A DNA stretch of 10,301 nucleotides from a virus (IMGVR_UViG_2531839668_000006); one strand, 5' to 3'. Positions 2,253 to 10,301 are shown, numbered from the stretch's first letter. Notes: a model not told the origin generated them from the sequence alone. Translations and numbers: made by a program.

Positions 2253-2486
2253 TCAATGCAGCCAGCTGTCGTCTTCCCACACCTTCTGCATAATTTTCAT
2301 CACTTGTTTTCTTTCTTCGTCCAGTTGCAGTCCGGTCAGTTCCACACCGTTAGAGCTACCTTTACGGATACGGATTACCGTTTTGGGATACAGGGGGCGC
2401 AGATTGCGGTAAAGCTCGGATTCAAGGGCGTCCAGGGTAGACTGGCTAATCTTCTGCTCTTTATCGATCATTATTTCAATGCGCAT
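2253..2486 (-). CDS. dinI: DinI-family protein (77 aa)
   Basis: From the internal ATG at 2486..2484 the product MRIEIMIDK...LDALESEL...ERKQVMKIMQKVWEDDSWLH aligns along its length with E. coli DinI as recalled (MRIEVTIAK...IDALAGEL...QETWESADDW). GAGGTG lies 6 nt upstream of the ATG. Confidence 0.85.
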   Translation of the reverse strand: MRIEIMIDKEQKISQSTLDALESELYRNLRPLYPKTVIRIRKGSSNGVELTGLQLDEERKQVMKIMQKVWEDDSWLH

Positions 2487-2496
2487 AAAAGTCACC

Positions 2497-2685
2497 TCAG
2501 TTGATGACATCCATTGAGCGGTTGTATTCGTGGCTTCTGATTTTTGCCATGAGTTCATCAGTCAATTCAGAAACCCACTGCAGAGCCAGCCCCTTCTCTT
2601 CATCACTACACTCACTAGCCGCTACAAGCTTAAGAAAAAAATCAATGCGCTGGAGCTTCAAAGACTCCAAAAAATAGTCCTGCAT
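2497..2685 (-). CDS. Small protein (62 aa), first gene of the LexA-controlled operon; positional analogue of the 186 Tum antirepressor
   Basis: ATG at 2685..2683 with a strong AGGAGG about 6 nt upstream (reverse complement of 2692..2697). Sits directly downstream of a LexA-box promoter and 10 nt upstream of the DinI-like gene. No family recognised from the sequence. Confidence 0.55.
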   Translation of the reverse strand: MQDYFLESLKLQRIDFFLKLVAASECSDEEKGLALQWVSELTDELMAKIRSHEYNRSMDVIN

Positions 2686-2726: not shown

Positions 2727-2769
2727 CACTGTTTATATTTACAGTATATAATAATCTTACTGATGTAAA
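2727..2769 (-). promoter_or_regulatory. SOS promoter with LexA operator (CTGT-N8-ACAG) overlapping the -10 element
   Basis: 2727..2746 reads caCTGTttatatttACAGta, matching the LexA box consensus TACTGT(AT)4ACAGTA. On the - strand a -35 TTTACA (2769..2764) and -10 TATACT (2748..2743) put the operator across the -10 and start site. A CTGT half-site also lies at 2714..2717. Confidence 0.7.
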
Positions 2770-2838: not shown

Positions 2839-5253
2839 TTAATACAGGTTCCGCCACTTATCATCTTCCTGCAAACGCTGGTTCCGATAGAAGATACGCA
2901 GGCCTGCTCCTGACGGAATACTGCCGCCGCGAAGGAGTAAATCGACCTCTTTCTCGCTGCCATCAAATCCTCTGGATTTCAGTTCATAGACGAGCTGCTG
3001 TCGTTGATGGTCTGTAATTCGCTGTTTGTAGTCTCTACGCCGTTTCGGTTTCACCAGACGTAACCTTGCAGCCAATTCCCGGCGCTCCTTTTTGTTCATA
3101 CTGTGCAGGTAATCGTGCAACACCTTGTCATCCATGCGGGTAATGTCCGTTCTGGGGTCCCCATCAGCTGATTTATCTTTCTCCTGTTGGTTCAAATTTT
3201 CAGCAAGGGGACAGTTATTGCCACGAGTCCAAGGGGCGCAAGCGCCCTGGTCGGCTGCCGCCTCCTGAACGTCAACGGCCTTACGAACCATTTTCCACTT
3301 CACGGCATGAGTGCAGATCTTGCCCTCTGCAATAGGTGACCAGATGCCATAAATACGAATGCCGTGATCGCCATAGGCGGTCGGCTCTTCGTTGATTTCA
3401 TAAGCAGTTCTGATGAGGTGATATTTGCGGGGAACCAGTACGCCACCCTGCTTCATGATGTAGGTGGCAAAACAACCAGCATCAGCAGCAGCCAGAATGG
3501 CATCAAGGCGCGGGTTATCCAGTACCGGCGCACCTGCTTTTTTGTCCCCCTGTTGCCTTGCCGCCTGACCAGCCAGCAATCGCAGTTCACGGTAAGCCTG
3601 ACGCCCCGGAATGCCAAAGAAGCGGAATTGCTGAACACGATGCAGAGACGCCCAGGCATTAACGTATTCAGCATTATCACGCAGGGATTTCCCCGTTTCC
3701 TTGCTGATCTCGCCAGCCAGACCACGCCCGTCAATGTTCTTACTGATGTATTTCGCGATGTAGCTTGTTGGCGTACCTTTGCGCGGGTTAATCAACTCAG
3801 ACTTAAAGCGCGGCCCAGTGTTATTGCCCAGCTCCTCGCGGTCTTCACGGATGGCAAACTTACGCAGTAATGCAGTGATGGTGCGGCGGTCTTTTTTGCG
3901 CATAAAACACAACAGGTGCCAGTGAACTGTACCGTCATGATGCGGCTCAGCCACCCGCACGCCATACCACCGCAATCCGGCTTTGTGCATCGCCTTACGA
4001 AATGCAGCAAACATGCCGACCAGATAATCACTGCTTTGTCTTACCGTCGCATTTGTCCAGGTTGGGTTGGGCCTGCCGTTATTTAGCGTGGAATGGAAAC
4101 GTGACGGACAGGTGATGGTGTAGAAAACGGCGCAGTCACCGCGCATTTCCGCGATAAGCTCCAGACCTTTAACACAGGCCATCATCTCATTGCGGCGATG
4201 CGCTGGGTTGCTGCTGCTGGCGTTTACCACATCCTCCATGTCCAGCGTGTCGCCGTCTTCGTTCACCAGTTCATGAGAACGGAAAAACTCCAGCGACTTA
4301 CGGCGCTGCTCACGTTTATGCATCACGGCTTCATAGCTGACATAAGGAGATGCTTTTTTGCTGACAAGGCAGACTGCACGCAACTGCTCTTCCCGCCATT
4401 CGCAACGCATCTTCCATAATTTCCGATACCACCAGTCGGCGCACAACATACGCGCCAGCGAACCCGGAATGAGTTCATAGGGCACGGGTTTACGGCGGTT
4501 TCTTTTCCGACGGAGTTGCTCAAACGCAGGCGGGATGACATCCAGACGCAGGGTTTCCGCTGCCACCCTTTCCCATGTATTGCGGATTTCTTCTGGCTTA
4601 ACGTCATCGGTGGCATACAAATCGCCACAAGCGGCATCAAGGCACATACTCATATGCGCAGCTACCAGGGTGGACAGGCGTTTCACCTGATCCTGACTCA
4701 TTTCAGGCAGGATCAGCAGGCCGTCCAGCCCTTCATGGCTTGCCATAAAGCGAAAAGATGCAGATAGCTGACTGTCGCGTACATGCTCCAGTCGTTCCAG
4801 ACATGGCTTAATCGTCTCACGTAAATAGCGGGAATAAGCCTTTGGCCTGCCCAGGCTGCTGAAGTATTCAATACGTTGCATCAGCGGCTTGCTGATATGG
4901 GAAGGCTGGGCGTTGACGTCCGCCAGAATGACCATATCCGGATTAAAACGCTGCTGCTCATGCGCCAGCTTTGCCCGACTAATGAGCTTATCCTGTTCCA
5001 TTTCGCGCTGGACAGGATCACGGGATTCATTAAAGAAATAACGCTCCCAGACCTGATCACTCAGCGCCTCACGGCGCAGCTGTTCCTGCTCGTTATCGGC
5101 AGCGTACAGAGTGATCAGGTTTGAAAGCGTAGAAACCGGCGCAACTTCCACCGGGTCCAGATAAGGGTTAATGGCCTTTTTCGGGCTGTTCCATGAGAAC
5201 GATGCGGCAGCTTCGTTAAAGCCGCAGCAGTTGTTCATATCGGCATGACTCAT
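2839..5253 (-). CDS. A: P2 gpA-type rolling-circle replication initiator (804 aa)
   Basis: Contains an HUH-type motif VHWHLL (codons at about 3916..3924) and paired active-site tyrosines SYIAKYISK (Tyr codons 3762..3760 and 3750..3748), as in phiX174/P2 gpA. Start ATG at 5253..5251 overlaps the Dam stop codon (ATGA). Confidence 0.9.
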
Positions 5254-6107
5254 GCACGTACTCCGTACACGGCAGAACTATCCACGCCACGCGAATAATC
5301 AAATCCCACCCAGCAGCGCGGCCCGGAAACAGCAATGATTTCTGTTGCTGATTTACCCTCGCCAGCTGCCACACCGATGCTGCGTTTTGCCTTGATGTAG
5401 TGGTGAGTAAAATTGCGATACAGCGAACGGATCAGGGATGTGTCACTGTTAGAAACAATGACCGGATGTCCTTCTGATGACCGATGTTCAAGAACAGATG
5501 CCAGGTGATACTGGTCATCTTCAGTGAAGCCGTCAGTGTGATAGCCGGAAAACGTACCGTCATACGGCGGATCGCAATACACCACATCCCCCGCCTTCAA
5601 CATCGCCAGCGTTTCATCAAAGCTGGCGCAGATAAACGTTGCTCGCTGGGCCTTTTCTGCAAATGCGCGAATTTCTTTTTCAGGGAAATACGGATTTTTA
5701 TAATTACCGTAGGGAATGTTGAAATGCCCGCTCTTGTTATAGCGACATAAACCACGGTAACCGTGACGATTGAGATACAGGAAATATACCGCTTTCATGA
5801 AATCAGTAATTTCAGTTGAGTAATTAAACTCCTGCCTTATGTTGTAATAAGCCACCTCCCTGTTTGCGATCTCAAATAAAACTCTGGCGCGAGATATAAA
5901 CGATTCACAATCAGCGGCAACCTTTTTATAGAGGTTGATTAAATCAGGATTAATATCCGCAACCAGATAGCTGGGATAATCCGTCTCCATCATCACAGCA
6001 CAGGAACCCGCGAAAGGTTCAACCAGTCGCGGGCCAGCAGGAAGATGTTTTTTCAGTTCGGACATTATGGCAGTTTTATTTCCCGCCCATTTCAGGATGG
6101 TGCTCAT
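5250..6107 (-). CDS. dam: DNA adenine methyltransferase, Dam/D12 class (285 aa from internal start)
   Basis: Motifs [18 protein letters not shown] (AdoMet binding) and DPPY (catalytic). Preferred start is the ATG at 6107..6105, preceded by GGAGGTG and overlapping the TraR-like stop (ATGA); the longer ORF from 6167 overlaps the upstream gene. Confidence 0.9.
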
Positions 6108-6331
6108 ACAGCACCTCCGTTGTAATGTTTGCCTTTCAGCTCTGCGATTTCCTGACAGGTAATGCAAAGCTGCACACCCGGAATGGCACGGCGGCGTGCT
6201 GGCGGAATTGGCGCTTCACACTCAATGCAAAGCACGCGGGACACGCCCGGCGTTTTGGCACGGGCAGCACGGATATGGCGTTGGCGTTCTTCTTCAACGC
6301 GCTGCTGTACGAGATCCATTGCATCAGCCAT
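6104..6331 (-). CDS. TraR/DksA-family C4 zinc-finger protein (75 aa)
   Basis: CIEC...(16 residues)...CITC zinc-finger spacing typical of phage TraR/DksA-like proteins. Start ATG at 6331..6329 overlaps the upstream stop (TAATG). Confidence 0.8.
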   Translation of the reverse strand: MADAMDLVQQRVEEERQRHIRAARAKTPGVSRVLCIECEAPIPPARRRAIPGVQLCITCQEIAELKGKHYNGGAV

Positions 6332-6564
6332 TAGTGGATCTCCTGCGCTTCGTTCTGGATTGCTTCAGCAGTCACACGAAGCAGTTCTGCCGCTTCGACG
6401 TGGGTTAGCTGGCGGGATGTGATATGACACGCCAGGCTATCAAGGCGAGCTGCCATTGCTTCAGCCCTTGCCCGGCGTTCTTCCAGACGAGCCTCTGTCA
6501 GTAAAATATTAAGCCCTGCGTCATCCGGTCCGGTTTTGGTCGAGAGGGTTTCAATATTACGCAT
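6331..6564 (-). CDS. Hypothetical early-operon protein (77 aa)
   Basis: ATG at 6564..6562 preceded by AGGAGA with 7 nt spacing; the ORF-track start at 6570 is a TTG. Acidic, Ala/Arg-rich and probably helical. Position matches the small orf80-83 block of P2-like phages. Confidence 0.55.
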   Translation of the reverse strand: MRNIETLSTKTGPDDAGLNILLTEARLEERRARAEAMAARLDSLACHITSRQLTHVEAAELLRVTAEAIQNEAQEIH

Positions 6565-6631
6565 AATCAATTCTCCTGAATTTAGATAAAGGGATGCCCG
6601 GCGGGTTTACGCCATTAATTTCATTGGTTGG

Positions 6632-6973
6632 TTAATTCGGCATGGTTAGCCGTCTGGGAAATAAGCTCACCACTGCACGAAAATGATTCATTGCTTTAAT
6701 CAACTCCCGCTTTTCGTCAGTGGTCAGCTCATTAATGCTGATGCTATGACGTTCAGCTGGAATTTTTGCCATAAAGAATATGGCAGCCAGTGCCCGTTTA
6801 TTTTGTTCGTTATTGATATCCCGTGGATCACGCATATCTTTAATAAACCGCTCAAGCTCTGACTCAATATTCAGGCCAAATACTTTCGCCCTTAATTCCG
6901 CAATGTGATTAAGTCCATTCAGGCGTTCTCCGGGGCTTAATGGAACAGTCGCCGCAGCGCCATTAATTGCCAT
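6632..6973 (-). CDS. Hypothetical early-operon protein (113 aa)
   Basis: ATG at 6973..6971 with a GGGGGA Shine-Dalgarno-like sequence 8 nt upstream; same orientation and tight spacing as neighbours. No family recognised. Confidence 0.6.
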   Translation of the reverse strand: MAINGAAATVPLSPGERLNGLNHIAELRAKVFGLNIESELERFIKDMRDPRDINNEQNKRALAAIFFMAKIPAERHSISINELTTDEKRELIKAMNHFRAVVSLFPRRLTMPN

Positions 6974-6995
6974 ACTTCATATCCCCCAAACGCAC

Positions 6996-7220
6996 CTATC
7001 GTTCTTTGTTCTTACGGTAACGCTCAAGGGGAGATACATTTTTTCGTACCGTCTCTTTAACCTGCTCTCCCCGTAAAAACGTCCCATCCTTTAGCGTGAA
7101 AAAGTAACTGCCATCGCCCGACAACGACGGATAACAACAGAGCAAATCATCTTCAGGTACTGAATAACTCTCCCCTCTGTAACAAAACTGATAAACCACT
7201 TCACTTTCCGCTGCATACAT
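6996..7220 (-). CDS. Hypothetical small protein (74 aa)
   Basis: ATG at 7220..7218 with an upstream GGAGA. Protein-like composition (MYAAESEVVYQFCYRGESYSVPEDD...). Overlaps the 3' part of the Fil-like frame. Confidence 0.45.
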   Translation of the reverse strand: MYAAESEVVYQFCYRGESYSVPEDDLLCCYPSLSGDGSYFFTLKDGTFLRGEQVKETVRKNVSPLERYRKNKER

Positions 7221-7387
7221 TTTGACTTTCTCCGTTTCCTCGTGGTCAATTCAGACAGCAATTCATCTTGTGAATGACATGGATGCCAGCGTTTTCCATC
7301 CTCACCCATGATCCAGCCGTGACCGTAGTGCATTGCCGGGCTTTGCTTTACCAGCAGCGATGCAAATGATGGTTCTTTCGTCAGCAT
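7091..7387 (-). CDS. Possible Fil-like early protein (frame open for 98 aa; 3' portion doubtful, possibly frameshifted)
   Basis: ATG at 7387..7385 lies 8 nt after the CII stop with GAGGTG upstream. N-terminal part (MLTKEPSFASLLVKQSPAMHYGHGWIMGEDGKRWHPC...) looks protein-like; the C-terminal 40 residues are Arg/Cys-rich and overlap the 74-aa ORF. Fil assignment is by position and vague recall. Confidence 0.3.
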   Translation of the reverse strand: MLTKEPSFASLLVKQSPAMHYGHGWIMGEDGKRWHPCHSQDELLSELTTRKRRKSKCMQRKVKWFISFVTEGRVIQYLKMICSVVIRRCRAMAVTFSR

Positions 7388-7394
7388 AAGCACC

Positions 7395-7904
7395 TCACAG
7401 CAAACCGAATGAAGCACCGAGTCCGGTCACGGTATCAACTGCACTCGCCATCGCAGGGTTAGCCTGTAAACGGGCCTGCAATGAAACAGCAGCCAACGCC
7501 ATCAGTCGTGTTACAGAGTTAATGCTGCTGATAGCATCACGACGACCTGCACTGGTTTTTACATCGCCAGATACCGCACCTGCAGCAACACGCCCGATCT
7601 CTGCGGTTGCACTCATGACGTAATGTGGCAGTTTCTCTTTTGCCACCTCATTAATCGGTACACATGGCAGACAATGAATCTGTGCCAGAAAACCATCTAC
7701 CAGCGTTGAATCTTCAGTCAGATCGGTAAGCAGCCAGATTTCTGGTGCGGTTAATAGATGAGGCTGAGCTGGGTTCAGCTTGTTCCGCAGAATCTGCACA
7801 TTCATGCCTGCACGTTCTGCCAGTTGCACCAGATTGTGGCGCAGTGCAAATGCACGACAGGCTTCATCAAAATGTGGATGTTTGGAAACTTGGTAATCAA
7901 ACAT
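7395..7904 (-). CDS. cII: 186 CII-like early regulator (169 aa)
   Basis: Second gene of the early operon, immediately after the Apl-like gene. Length from the ATG at 7904 matches the 169 aa of 186 CII as I recall it. The ORF-track start at 7910 is a TTG; AGAGG lies 8 nt upstream of the ATG. Confidence 0.7.
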
Positions 7905-7936
7905 GGTCAATGCCTCTGATGTATTTCAGAATCGAA

Positions 7937-8158
7937 CTAATTAAGGTTTAGATTGCATTCTGAAAGCGCATCAACGGTCATGGCTGCTATGTTGATCATC
8001 ACTTTTTCGCGTTTTTTATCTTTGCGCAAACGGTGACGGATAAGGCGTCCGTCAGCCAACATGTCATTGATGGTATCGATGGACAGCCCTGTCAGCTCGC
8101 TATAGCGCTCAATAGTCACATGAGGCGTGGTAAGAGTGATTGAAATGTTAGGTCTCAT
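7937..8158 (-). CDS. apl: Apl/Cox-like small HTH regulator/excisionase (73 aa)
   Basis: First gene of the leftward operon, divergent from cI. HTH-like segment [25 protein letters not shown] followed by a basic tail. Size and position match Apl (186) / Cox (P2). Confidence 0.65.
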
Positions 8159-8283
8159 GATGCAACATTCCTCGTTTAATGATGATTAATCAGGACGAAT
8201 ACGGATCGTTTGTACTTTGTGAACACCATAAACATACGATCGCAAAATGAAATCGTCAAGATAAAAGTTCACTTGGAGTGACC
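8159..8283. promoter_or_regulatory. Lysis-lysogeny switch region between apl and cI with candidate pR and operator-like inverted repeats
   Basis: Candidate - strand promoter: -35 TTGACG (reverse complement of 8254..8259), 17 bp, -10 TATGTT (reverse complement of 8231..8236). Inverted repeat GATCGTTTGT (8204..8213) / ACATACGATC (8232..8241), one mismatch, overlaps that -10. A second repeat TTAAT-N4-ATTAA lies at 8176..8189. No convincing rightward promoter for cI found. Confidence 0.45.
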
Positions 8284-8853
8284 ATGAATTTGGAGAAAGG
8301 CGGACGAGGCGCTATAGAGCGCATGGTAGAAGCTTATGGATTCAAAACTCGACAGGCGTTGTGCGATCATTTAGGAATCTCTAAAAGTACACTCGCCACA
8401 CGCTACATGCGTGACTCATTCCCAGCAGAATGGGTAATCCAGTGCGCCCTTGAAACGGGCACCTCGCTTAATTGGCTCACAACCGGACATGGTTCAAAGC
8501 AAACTTCAGGTAATACAAATACTATGGAAGTTGCTAAATATGTATTATCTGATGGTGCCTTGCGTGAAGACGGTTTTTATATTTTTGATAAGGGATTTCT
8601 ACCCTCTACGTTTAAAAAACCTTTTGTCATCACAGATAACAATTCTGAATTTATTTGTGATAAAGAATTTGATGATATACGTGATGGTAAATGGGTAATA
8701 AGTATTGATGGCGAAGTAACGATCCGTGACATTACTCGTTTACCCGGTGGAAGAATCTTCGTCGAGGGTGGAAACAGAGCCTTCGAATGTAAGATAGAAG
8801 ACATTGAAATAATTGGTAAAATTATAAGTTTAACAGTCAAGTATGTTAAATAG
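8284..8853 (+). CDS. cI: 186-type CI repressor (189 aa)
   Basis: N-terminal HTH region (AYGFKTRQALCDHLGISKSTLATRYMRDSFPAEWVIQCALETGTSLNWLTTG) matches the 186 CI-type repressor pattern as recalled. Length matches 186 CI (about 192 aa). GGAG lies 5 nt upstream of the ATG at 8284; the ORF-track start at 8278 is a GTG. Confidence 0.8.
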   Translation: MNLEKGGRGAIERMVEAYGFKTRQALCDHLGISKSTLATRYMRDSFPAEWVIQCALETGTSLNWLTTGHGSKQTSGNTNTMEVAKYVLSDGALREDGFYIFDKGFLPSTFKKPFVITDNNSEFICDKEFDDIRDGKWVISIDGEVTIRDITRLPGGRIFVEGGNRAFECKIEDIEIIGKIISLTVKYVK

Positions 8854-8868
8854 CACCGGGAGGAAACT

Positions 8869-9060
8869 ATGCTTGGTAAGGTATTTTTTGTGGTTTTGTC
8901 ATGTTCTTTGTTATTAAACCCACTAACTACCTATGCTAGAAATTATCCCTGCTCAGGGAAAAAGGGAGGTGTTTCTCACTGTACCTCAGATGGCAAATTC
9001 GTTTGCAATGATGGAACTATTAGTAAATCCAAAAAAATCTGTACTAAAAACTCACGATAA
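8869..9060 (+). CDS. Small secreted Cys-rich protein (63 aa) between cI and int
   Basis: Strong GGGAGG with 5 nt spacing before the ATG at 8869. N-terminal hydrophobic signal-like segment ([22 protein letters not shown]), then a Lys/Gly/Ser-rich region with four cysteines. AT-rich. Confidence 0.55.
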
Positions 9061-9195
9061 CTTTTGCTTTTATATCTGCGTCTAAAATAAAAATGAGCCG
9101 CAGGTTAACCGCAAAAGTTACATGCTCACATAGCAAAAAGAATAGCCAACTTCATTATGGCTTCAGTGAGATGTATGGTCGTAGGATTTCATACA

Positions 9196-9224
9196 TTGAC
9201 ACTGGTTATACATACAGTAAAAAT
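9196..9224 (+). promoter_or_regulatory. Candidate int-proximal sigma70 promoter (-35 TTGACA, -10 TAAAAA)
   Basis: Perfect TTGACA at 9196..9201, 16-17 bp spacer, then TAAAAA/AAAAAT at 9218..9224, about 25 nt upstream of the int ATG and its GGAGGG at 9235..9240. Confidence 0.3.
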
Positions 9225-9248
9225 GCTCTCTACTGGAGGGCATTTTTT

Positions 9249-10301
9249 ATGGCAGTACGAAAACTCACCACAGGGAAATGGCTTTGCGAATGTTACCCCG
9301 CCGGACGAAGTGGGCGTCGTGTGCGTAAACAATTCGCCACCAAAGGCGAAGCTCTGGCTTTTGAGCGTCACACTATGGAAGAAACCGAATCAAAGCCATG
9401 GCTGGGCGAATCAGTGGATCGTCGAACCCTGAAAGACGTGGTTGAGCTATGGTTCAAACTACATGGTAAATCTCTGACTGCTGGGCAGCATGTCTATGAC
9501 AAATTGCTGCTGATGGTTGACGCTCTGGGCAATCCTCTTGCAACCGATCTCACCTCTAAAATGTTTGCCCACTATCGAGATAAACGCCTGACAGGCGAGA
9601 TCTACTTCAGCGAGAAATGGAAGAAAGGAGCAAGCCCGGTCACCATTAACCTGGAGCAAAGCTATCTAAGTAGTGTTTTTAGCGAACTATCCCGTCTGGG
9701 CGAATGGTCGTATCCGAACCCACTGGAGAACATGCGAAAATTCACCATCGCAGAAAAAGAGATGGCATGGCTTACCCATGAGCAGATTGTTGAATTACTG
9801 GCTGATTGCAAACGTCAGGACCCAATTCTAGCACTGGTAGTTAAGATATGCTTAAGCACAGGCGCACGCTGGCGAGAAGCCGTAAATCTTACTCGTTCAC
9901 AGGTGACCAAATACCGAATTACCTTTGTAAGAACGAAGGGGAAGAAAAACAGAAGTATCCCTATCAGTAAAGAGCTTTACGAAGAGATCATGGCGCTTGA
10001 TGGGTTCAATTTCTTCACAGACTGCTATTTTCAATTTTTATCCGTGATGGAAAAAACGTCTATCGTGCTCCCTCGCGGTCAACTCACACACGTTCTGCGC
10101 CATACGTTTGCGGCGCACTTCATGATGTCGGGTGGAAACATTCTGGCCTTACAAAAAATTCTCGGACACCACGATATAAAAATGACTATGCGTTACGCAC
10201 ATCTGGCACCGGATCATCTGGAAACGGCGCTCCGTTTCAATCCTCTGGCAACGCTGCCAAGTGGCGACAAAGTGGCGGCAGCGGTTGGCATTACCCCGTA
10301 A
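9249..10301 (+). CDS. int: P2-family tyrosine integrase (350 aa from internal start)
   Basis: C-terminal catalytic region (CLSTGARWREA, RITFVRTKGKKNRSIPIS, HVLRHTFAAHFMMSGGNILALQKILGHHDIKMTMRYAHLAP) closely resembles P2 Int as recalled. The ATG at 9249 has GGAGGG 8 nt upstream and begins MAVRKLTTGKW, like P2 Int MAIKKLDDGRY. The ORF from 9093 is a probable over-extension. The TAA stop is the last codon of the window. Confidence 0.9.
   Translation: MAVRKLTTGKWLCECYPAGRSGRRVRKQFATKGEALAFERHTMEETESKPWLGESVDRRTLKDVVELWFKLHGKSLTAGQHVYDKLLLMVDALGNPLATDLTSKMFAHYRDKRLTGEIYFSEKWKKGASPVTINLEQSYLSSVFSELSRLGEWSYPNPLENMRKFTIAEKEMAWLTHEQIVELLADCKRQDPILALVVKICLSTGARWREAVNLTRSQVTKYRITFVRTKGKKNRSIPISKELYEEIMALDGFNFFTDCYFQFLSVMEKTSIVLPRGQLTHVLRHTFAAHFMMSGGNILALQKILGHHDIKMTMRYAHLAPDHLETALRFNPLATLPSGDKVAAAVGITP

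Follow-up and report, generated by a model that had tools for sequence, protein, structure and literature searches.

The repressor gene cI of the prophage described here very probably contains, within an otherwise ordinary 186-type gene, a border between two evolutionary modules, which coincides with a pronounced drop in GC content between the regions coding for its N-terminal and C-terminal domains (NTD and CTD). The analysed stretch of DNA, referred to as the window, spans 10,301 nucleotides and corresponds to the early and lysogeny region of an E. coli prophage that is 186-like and belongs to the P2 family. Its features are collected in Table 1, and its minus strand additionally holds dam and several small genes.

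Table 1. Features of the window, with positions counted from its first nucleotide.
Feature	Position	Strand	Remarks
DinI-like ORF	2253-2486	-	77 codons; ATG at 2486, end at 2253-2255
Tum N-half homologue	2497-2685	-	62 aa; downstream of LexA box
LexA box	2729-2744		CTGTTTATATTTACAG, perfect; upstream of Tum N-half
Replication gene A	2839-5253	-	
cII	7395-7910	-	PF06892 match
Immunity cassette	7908-8568		660 bp; apl-cII spacer, apl, pR/pL operator region, CI aa 1-95
apl	7937-8158	-	Cox-like excisionase/repressor homologue by position; inside cassette
Switch region	8159-8283		between apl and cI
pR-like promoter	TTGACG 8259-8254, TATGTT 8236-8231	-	from promoter scan; beside cI start as in 186
cI	8284-8853	+	189 aa; ATG at 8284, mechanical ORF begins with GTG at 8278
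NTD-coding part	8284-8499	+	HTH, type A; backbone-like GC
Recombination junction zone	8431-8568	+	NTD end, linker, first CTD residues (aa 50-95)
AT-rich tract	8493-~9200		linker, CTD, orf63, spacer before int
CTD-coding part	8536-8853	+	oligomerisation, wheel-forming by homology, type X; AT-rich
orf63	8869-9060	+	63 codons; between cI and int
int, tyrosine integrase	9249-10301	+	Pfam Int_N and Phage_integrase; right conserved flank

A 186-type repressor with separable domains

The assignment of CI to the 186-type repressors is reflected in its match to both characteristic Pfam families, with Phage_CI_repr (PF07022, HTH) covering residues 11-74 (E=2.8e-33, 114.5 bits, cut-off 22) and Phage_CI_C (PF16452) residues 85-183 (E=5.4e-29, 100.8 bits, cut-off 27), while the Peptidase_S24 profile scored below its threshold (16.9 vs 23.3 bits). 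The protein also matches solved structures directly, including that of 186 CI (2FJR chain A, E=3.3e-31, residues 10-183 aligned to residues 10-184 of the chain), that of the isolated 186 CI CTD, a 14-mer (2FKD, E=2.6e-14), and a chain of PDB entry 7JVT that aligns with the CTD alone. RefSeq records of hundreds of E. coli genomes label the gene 'phage repressor protein CI'.

The resemblance to coliphage 186 extends to the gene order, with cII and apl divergent from cI and followed by int as in the annotated 186 record, to the pR-like promoter abutting the start of cI and to a LexA-boxed tum homologue downstream of A. The counterparts of apl in related phages are annotated as 'Cox protein' or 'Cox-like excisionase and repressor'. 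The window differs from 186 in the sequence of its CI, which is only 37% (NTD) and 29% (CTD) identical to that of 186, in its operators, in the presence of a ydcA cargo gene between cI and int, which directly adjoin each other in 186, and in a much stronger GC step.

A subfamily of CI homologues of 292-326 residues contains two tandem N-terminal HTH domains followed by a single CTD (P0009, P0010, P0019-23, P0027, P0029, P0036, P0042, P0043, P0050 and others), with each HTH showing 50-60% identity to the NTD of the window. These proteins are found in E. coli, Salmonella, Klebsiella, Enterobacter and Edwardsiella and, to our knowledge, this architecture has not been known for 186-type repressors. 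The CTD of 186 CI builds a wheel of 14 subunits arranged as seven dimers and is thus the oligomerisation domain of the protein, as the earlier note had correctly stated (PMC3675496); the CTD of the window would by homology assemble in a similar manner. A hybrid repressor combining the NTD of the lambda protein with the CTD of 186 CI is active (PMC8053113), and the CTD of 186 CI, when over-produced in isolation, acts as a dominant negative and triggers induction of the prophage (PMC7708051). Together, the hybrid, the dominant-negative effect, the wheel-building CTD and the homologues with tandem NTDs support the view that both domains of CI are independent. They lend support to a division of roles in which the NTD and the operators set immunity and the CTD determines which subunits assemble with each other. 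Immunity specificity is expected to reside in the NTD and the operators and not in the CTD, and the proposal of the earlier note that exchange of the CTD could change immunity is unsupported.

An immunity cassette that ends within cI

The module border becomes apparent at the level of DNA in a comparison with the closest relatives of the phage backbone, a prophage of E. coli N2250 (L001/L045) and one of Escherichia sp. MOD1-EC7003 (L006). The window and the N2250 prophage are 95-100% identical over positions 6100-7907 and 8569-10301, and 68-89% identical within the cassette that separates both regions. Its left junction is located at 7907/7908, exactly at the start of cII, and its right junction at 8566/8569, with the last clustered difference found at 8566. 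Further to the right, merely 5 differences to L001/L006 are contained in the 692 nucleotides of 8569-9260 (99.3%), with 96-100% identity continuing to 10301. Within cI, the identity to the same prophages is 68.0% for 8284-8430 and 80.2% for 8478-8568, and both segments are separated by a run of 47 identical nucleotides (8431-8477), which encodes the invariant EWVIQCALETGTSLNW.

The encoded proteins show the same pattern, with identities to the N2250 prophage of 99% for CII, 98% for A, 97% for the Tum N-half and 100% for the DinI-like protein on the left side of the cassette and of 95% for the CTD and 100% for both the orf63 product and Int on its right side, compared to 84% for Apl and 81% for the NTD inside. 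The part that was exchanged between this pair is thus the DNA-binding side, whereas CTD, orf63 and int are shared. Apl is 90-92% identical in loci with an NTD of the window's type, termed type A, and 84-85% identical in loci with other NTD types. The crisp two-sided junction is confined to the N2250-type comparison, where, without an outgroup, the direction of exchange is not polarised. A third CI is found on the same backbone in phage vB_EcoM-813R9, with 76% identity in the NTD, 42% in the CTD and a different cargo gene.

Although the predicted recognition helices of the type-A NTD and of type B, its counterpart in the N2250-like prophages, differ at a single residue (L37M), their operator regions suggest that both would be heteroimmune, since the A-type switch region is unalignable with that of type B and the words shared between them are restricted to the region of the apl ribosome-binding site. 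Among type-A loci, the switch region is more than 90% conserved, which exceeds the conservation of synonymous sites in the NTD. According to its annotated record, phage 186 has two further, flanking CI sites, of which FR is situated in the apl-cII interval and FL in cI itself, around codons 90-95, and by analogy the cassette would cover every position at which CI sites are located in 186.

Neither the FL nor the FR position of the window carries the 186-type motif ATTCAC-N5-GTGAAT, and the 186 consensus TTCAC-N5-GTGAA has one site in the switch region, at 8268-8282, where it overlaps the ribosome-binding site of cI. An imperfect inverted repeat with arms of 24 nucleotides (8497-8561, 75% complementary, 17-nt spacer) straddles the linker near the position homologous to FL of 186 (cI codons 90-95), and it lacks sequence conservation across loci of type A. 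The word TGTATTNTCWGA, considered post hoc as an operator motif, was rejected, since it occurs only in both arms of this repeat and is not significant, two matches being reached in 13 of 200 shuffles; a generic repeat search around the switch recovered short two-copy families only, which are probably chance matches. Two sequences resembling sigma-70 promoters are found further to the right, one antisense to the 3' end of cI (8821-8849, minus strand, TTAACA-17-TATAAT, 11/12) and one just upstream of int (9196-9224, plus strand, TTGACA-17-AAAAAT), both of which may reflect AT-richness, as the number of such matches is no higher than expected from shuffling.

The antirepressor does not follow the C-terminal domain

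The segment 2253-2744 forms an SOS module, in which the LexA box and the tum homologue would, by their arrangement in the sequence, provide for induction by a LexA-controlled antirepressor instead of RecA-mediated self-cleavage of CI. In contrast to 186, where tum is fused, the gene of the window is split by a stop codon and a change of frame, which separate its antirepressor half from its DinI half. A split tum was described for Fels-2 and PSP3, and in PSP3 the antirepressor activity resides in the upstream half (PMC3121763).

Binding of Tum is reported to inactivate CI (Shearwin 1998, as cited in PMC3121763), and variability is much higher in the CTD than in the NTD. Both observations would be accounted for if the CTD were the target of Tum, as was presumed in the earlier note, and if its exchange altered the sensitivity to the antirepressor, which would then drive the variety of CTDs. 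We consider this explanation very unlikely in light of a comparison of eleven phages and prophages with an alignable Tum N-half, a small sample in which the pairs are assumed to be functional. In this sample, N-halves of a first Tum type, which are 97-100% identical, are found next to CTDs with 95, 56, 51 and 42% identity to that of the window and NTDs with 76-99% identity. N-halves of a second type, which are 84-95% identical among themselves and ~40% identical to those of the first, occur together with a type-A NTD and with CTDs that are 33-41% mutually identical. The identity of Tum instead follows that of the neighbouring A gene to which it is linked and not that of CI. The sample thus shows no sign of co-evolution between Tum and the CTD, and the proposed role of the CTD as antirepressor target is left without comparative support. 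A literature search found no paper that maps the domain of CI bound by Tum.

A composition step shared throughout the family

The GC content of the NTD-coding part of cI (0.495; 0.51, 0.50 and 0.47 at the three codon positions) resembles that of the core genes A (0.53), cII (0.50) and int (0.48), whereas it decreases to 0.336 in 8500-8853 (0.43, 0.34 and 0.24) and remains low in orf63 (0.354). The difference is significant at third positions, where G or C is found in 34 of 72 codons of the N-terminal and 27 of 117 codons of the C-terminal part (Fisher p=7.5e-4). The maximum-likelihood change point is located at 8493, with a likelihood ratio that was reached in 6 of 2000 codon shuffles. In a sliding profile, GC ranges between 0.32 and 0.40 from ~8450 to ~9200, and the break in composition and the extent of the AT-rich tract described in the earlier note are thus borne out.

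To what degree this drop results from the encoded protein is illustrated by 5000 simulations, in which the amino acids of the CTD were recoded with the codon usage of the core genes of the window. The simulations predict a GC content of 0.431 (sd 0.015), and none of them is as low as the observed value of 0.336, which is located about 6 standard deviations below. In the same recoding, orf63 is expected at 0.447 and observed at 0.360, whereas the NTD matches its expectation. Amino-acid content thus explains ~0.09 of the drop of 0.16, corresponding to about half, and AT-rich codon choice accounts for the rest, so that the possibility that amino-acid content alone underlies the shift does not apply.

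The step is not a particular property of this phage. We have compared 35 loci with a 186-type cI, which include 30 genomes, each representing a species and together covering at least 15 genera, four prophages obtained by other routes and the window itself. In all 35, the GC content of the NTD exceeds that of the CTD (means 0.477 and 0.360), in 33 this also holds for third positions, and in each locus the step is located at about codon 80. Aligned on the start of cI, mean GC amounts to 0.45-0.48 over nucleotides 1-240, falls to 0.37 at nucleotide 241 and stays between 0.30 and 0.40 for at least 700 nucleotides past the drop. All loci whose CTDs are unrelated and whose downstream genes differ likewise show the step, and in phage 186 it is weak (0.477 vs 0.434).

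These results bear on the idea that the phage has recently taken up CTD and orf63 from an AT-rich donor and that the break in composition is the scar of this single event, which would be compatible with the contiguity of the AT-rich tract from ~8493 to ~9200, with a choice of AT-rich codons that exceeds the demand of the amino-acid sequence and with the common history of distal CTD and orf63 in E. coli alleles described below. Such an island should be absent from relatives, yet the same codon marks the step in all 35 loci, which contain many unrelated CTDs and cargo genes, and the B-type E. coli prophages show it with a different NTD (0.476 to 0.333). Moreover, it is not the AT-rich island that distinguishes the window from its nearest backbone relative, since CTD, orf63 and int are shared with L001 and it is the NTD side that differs. 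A recent acquisition is thus largely refuted, and we consider it scarcely probable. Since the step is family-wide and located at the same codon, the break in GC does not testify to a recent exchange in this phage; the earlier note had taken it to suggest a domain swap.

Discordant histories within one gene

Evidence for exchange is instead provided by the relationships of both halves of the protein, which, when aligned separately to CI homologues, have different nearest relatives. The E. coli proteins P0004-8 are 81-83% identical to the window in the NTD and 94-96% in the CTD, whereas proteins from Citrobacter, Kosakonia and other genera (P0011-18) show the opposite relationship with 94-99% in the NTD and 54-58% in the CTD (for example, 81% vs 96% and 99% vs 56%), and in P0065, P0066 and P0089 identities of 94-97% in the NTD are combined with 31-37% in the CTD. 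Upon clustering of 96 homologues of canonical length, we obtained 14 NTD and 54 CTD clusters, with the NTD type of the window paired with 26 different CTD clusters and five CTD clusters each paired with two NTD clusters, as exemplified by P0076 and P0119, whose CTDs are 100% and whose NTDs are 77% identical. Across the 96 proteins, the pairwise identities of N- and C-terminal parts correlate with a coefficient of 0.18.

Close alleles from E. coli reveal an even finer patchwork. In L005, L049 and L047, residues 71-115 constitute a separate divergent patch with a dS of 0.39-0.45 compared to 0.065 in the NTD, and in L005 and L049 the distal CTD returns to a dS of 0.07. In L047 and L048, both residues 116-189 and orf63 show a dS of ~0.3, with values of 0.03-0.07 in the NTD. 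Neighbouring blocks thus differ between 0.02-0.07 and 0.3-0.45, and cI holds at least three exchangeable segments. The matching dS in L047 and L048 implies that the distal CTD and orf63 move as one block, which agrees with the linkage between CTD and downstream small ORF suggested in the earlier note. Positive selection on the CTD was considered and is unsupported at the time scale of these alleles, as dN/dS is ~0.1 in every block.

A slowly evolving NTD and a fast CTD, with composition following from amino-acid content, could in principle produce similar differences without any recombination, and the generally better conservation of the NTD, the share of amino-acid content in the GC drop (~0.09 of 0.16) and the uniform dN/dS of ~0.1 among close alleles, devoid of any sign of positive selection, would fit such a scenario; as a complete explanation it is nevertheless refuted and highly improbable, since differences in rate cannot account for pairs whose CTDs are closer than their NTDs (96% vs 81% in E. 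coli and 100% vs 77% in P0076/P0119), in addition to the abrupt DNA junctions adjoining regions of ~99% identity, the dS of 0.03 next to 0.4 in adjacent blocks and a GC content ~6 standard deviations below that expected from amino acids. Differences in rate are a valid component for the deep divergence between genera. In Citrobacter, Kosakonia, Salmonella, Enterobacter and Klebsiella, type-A NTDs share 93-99% of their amino acids with the window but only ~80% of their nucleotides and differ from it at third positions, which illustrates the strong purifying selection on this domain, whereas the CTD DNA of type-A loci from other genera is 56-68% identical where alignable (L041, L037, L038). Since synonymous sites are saturated across genera, these deep comparisons cannot separate fast divergence of the CTD in situ from swaps. 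In the flanks, to the left from cII and to the right from int, the window matches L041 and L038 with 93-99% identity, and in view of the deep divergence between both flanks the entire interval 7700-9200 has a far longer history than the backbone, which fits old immunity alleles that were moved between backbones.

The suggestion of a domain swap made in the earlier note is thus upheld with respect to a mosaic cI with discordant halves and a junction zone, but not with respect to the part affected, as the CTD is shared with the closest relative and the NTD side is what differs.

A cargo gene between cI and int

The product of orf63 belongs to the YdcA family (NCBIfam NF007463, 115.8 bits, curated cut-off 93), its homologues in L037 are labelled PF27300 YdcA and its hydrophobic N-terminus resembles a signal peptide. 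The gene is cargo of the lysogenic operon in the slot between cI and int and its relationships parallel those of the CTD, as it is 93-100% identical next to CTDs of the window's type X and 67% identical next to type Y (CTD 56%). Homologues adjoin cI exclusively in loci with either of both CTD types and are absent from other loci, where relatives contain a KAP NTPase, 8xMP, AAA ATPases or other proteins of no known kind.

Hotspots for accessory and defence genes were described in P2-like prophages (PMC9122126, PMC13586616), including a minor one between integrase and primase (PMC13586616). The slot between cI and int resembles such hotspots in its varied cargo, and it is as AT-rich as the cargo at 214-2193 of the window (GC 0.32-0.40). 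Unlike in those hotspots, the AT-rich variable zone here extends ~350 nucleotides into the essential gene cI and covers the whole oligomerisation domain.

Discussion

The properties of the window are best described by a module border inside cI. To the left of ~8493, apl, the operators and the HTH domain would constitute a module that is expected to set immunity specificity, is under purifying selection and shares the GC content of the backbone, whereas the module to the right would comprise the oligomerisation domain and the cargo slot before int, which is hypervariable and uniformly AT-rich throughout the family. Since both CI domains are likely to fold and work independently and since short conserved stretches such as the 47-nt run are retained at the end of the NTD, homologous recombination among 186-like phages that reside in the same cell or co-infect it would repeatedly join differing left and right modules. 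In case of the window, it would have placed an A-type cassette on a backbone whose CTD, orf63 and int are nearly base-identical to those of presumably heteroimmune B-type E. coli prophages. Swaps on the NTD side would be expected to alter operator specificity and those on the CTD side the partners in co-assembly, but not the sensitivity to Tum. The AT-richness presumably reflects the fast-turnover, accessory-like zone to which the CTD would belong in evolutionary terms. As a stable trait of the family that marks a module border, the step illustrates that a change of GC within a gene should not on its own be read as a recent swap.

The exchange of modules in the immunity region, with a junction at the border of repressor domains, is known and an ordinary form of phage mosaicism. 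Immunity regions are said to evolve in a modular fashion, in line with the modular theory that is attributed to Botstein. The immunity regions of lambdoid phages are mosaic and include intragenic junctions at the borders of repressor domains. As in these regions, a cassette containing the DNA-binding part, the operators and an antagonistic regulator has been swapped on a near-constant backbone, with one junction located at a domain border inside the repressor gene. In contrast to lambdoid repressors, the protein described here belongs to a 186/P2-like phage (Peduoviridae), whose CTD would form wheels in place of a RecA-cleavable S24 domain. Our literature search found no earlier description of a mosaic 186-type cI. 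The present analysis adds modestly to this picture, with an example from a 186-type phage, the presence of the GC step throughout the family and the extreme variety of CTDs.

The hypervariable AT-rich CTD might further define what could be termed co-assembly groups. Since the isolated CTD of 186 CI is dominant negative (PMC7708051), repressors sharing a CTD should form mixed wheels and thereby weaken each other. We regard this proposal as tentative and rather unlikely to hold. If true, it would imply selection for diversification of the CTD, which is reflected in 54 CTD compared to 14 NTD types and in a single NTD combined with 26 CTDs; E. coli phages of the A-X and B-X kind, which have CTD X in common and differ in their operators, would destabilise each other upon meeting, and swaps of the CTD would re-wire which prophages cross-induce, independently of classical immunity. 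The A-X and B-X phages have identical integrases and adjoin the same host gene, rcdA, and they thus compete for one attachment site, which confounds a test of CTD co-occurrence in A-X/B-X polylysogens.

Irrespective of such effects, the family offers natural hybrids of 186-type repressors, with one CTD joined to two sets of NTD and operators and one NTD joined to more than 20 CTDs, and the hybrid set described here resides in about 10% of complete E. coli genomes. These proteins could help to assign operator specificity, the assembly of wheels and sensitivity to the antirepressor to either domain, and they provide ready-made parts for the engineering of orthogonal repressors.

Distribution and further features of the window

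Of 5426 complete E. coli genomes, 513 contain the segment 7900-9300 with 95-99.9% identity, including those of BL21-derived laboratory strains, E. coli HS and ATCC 8739, where the annotation lists its genes as CI, integrase and, between them, a hypothetical or YdcA-family protein. The module of CTD and orf63 is found in 629 and the type-A operator-NTD segment in 539 of the same 5426 genomes, and about 115 genomes thus combine CTD X with a different left side. A megablast search of a phage collection found no close match to 8173-9170, and the close relatives of this segment are all prophages in bacterial genomes, whereas the DNA of int is 96-97% identical to that of Klebsiella and E. coli phages from 9171 onward. 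The mechanical ORF of int reaches 52 codons upstream of the annotated ATG at 9249 (9093-9248), and this extension is probably untranslated, since matches to phage integrases start at ~9171 and its upstream part is AT-rich.

Two contigs carrying related genes are labelled as metagenome-assembled genomes, one of Bacillota (L005, JAEWTL010000113.1) with a prophage cI that is 96% identical and one of Pseudopedobacter (L016, QFOI01000672.1) with one that is 56% identical, and the presence of an enterobacterial prophage cI in both probably reflects binning contamination.

The backbone itself contains further small mosaic differences. A gene encoding a DUF3850 protein is located between dam and the gene of a TraR/DksA-like protein in L045 (7846-8148) and L041 (7772-8074), which the window does not contain at the corresponding position (6118), and the fil region (~6975-7230) is replaced in some relatives. 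Downstream of the DinI-like gene, three AT-rich ORFs on the minus strand (214-2193, GC 0.32-0.40) encode proteins of 243 residues with a hydrophobic, lipoprotein-like N-terminus, 156 residues with a weak acetyltransferase-like match and 135 residues. They are located at the position of the known accessory and defence hotspot between GpA and GpQ of P2, and relatives contain wholly different genes at this position, including SIR2/AAA, a reverse transcriptase with an ATPase and a SecB-like protein.
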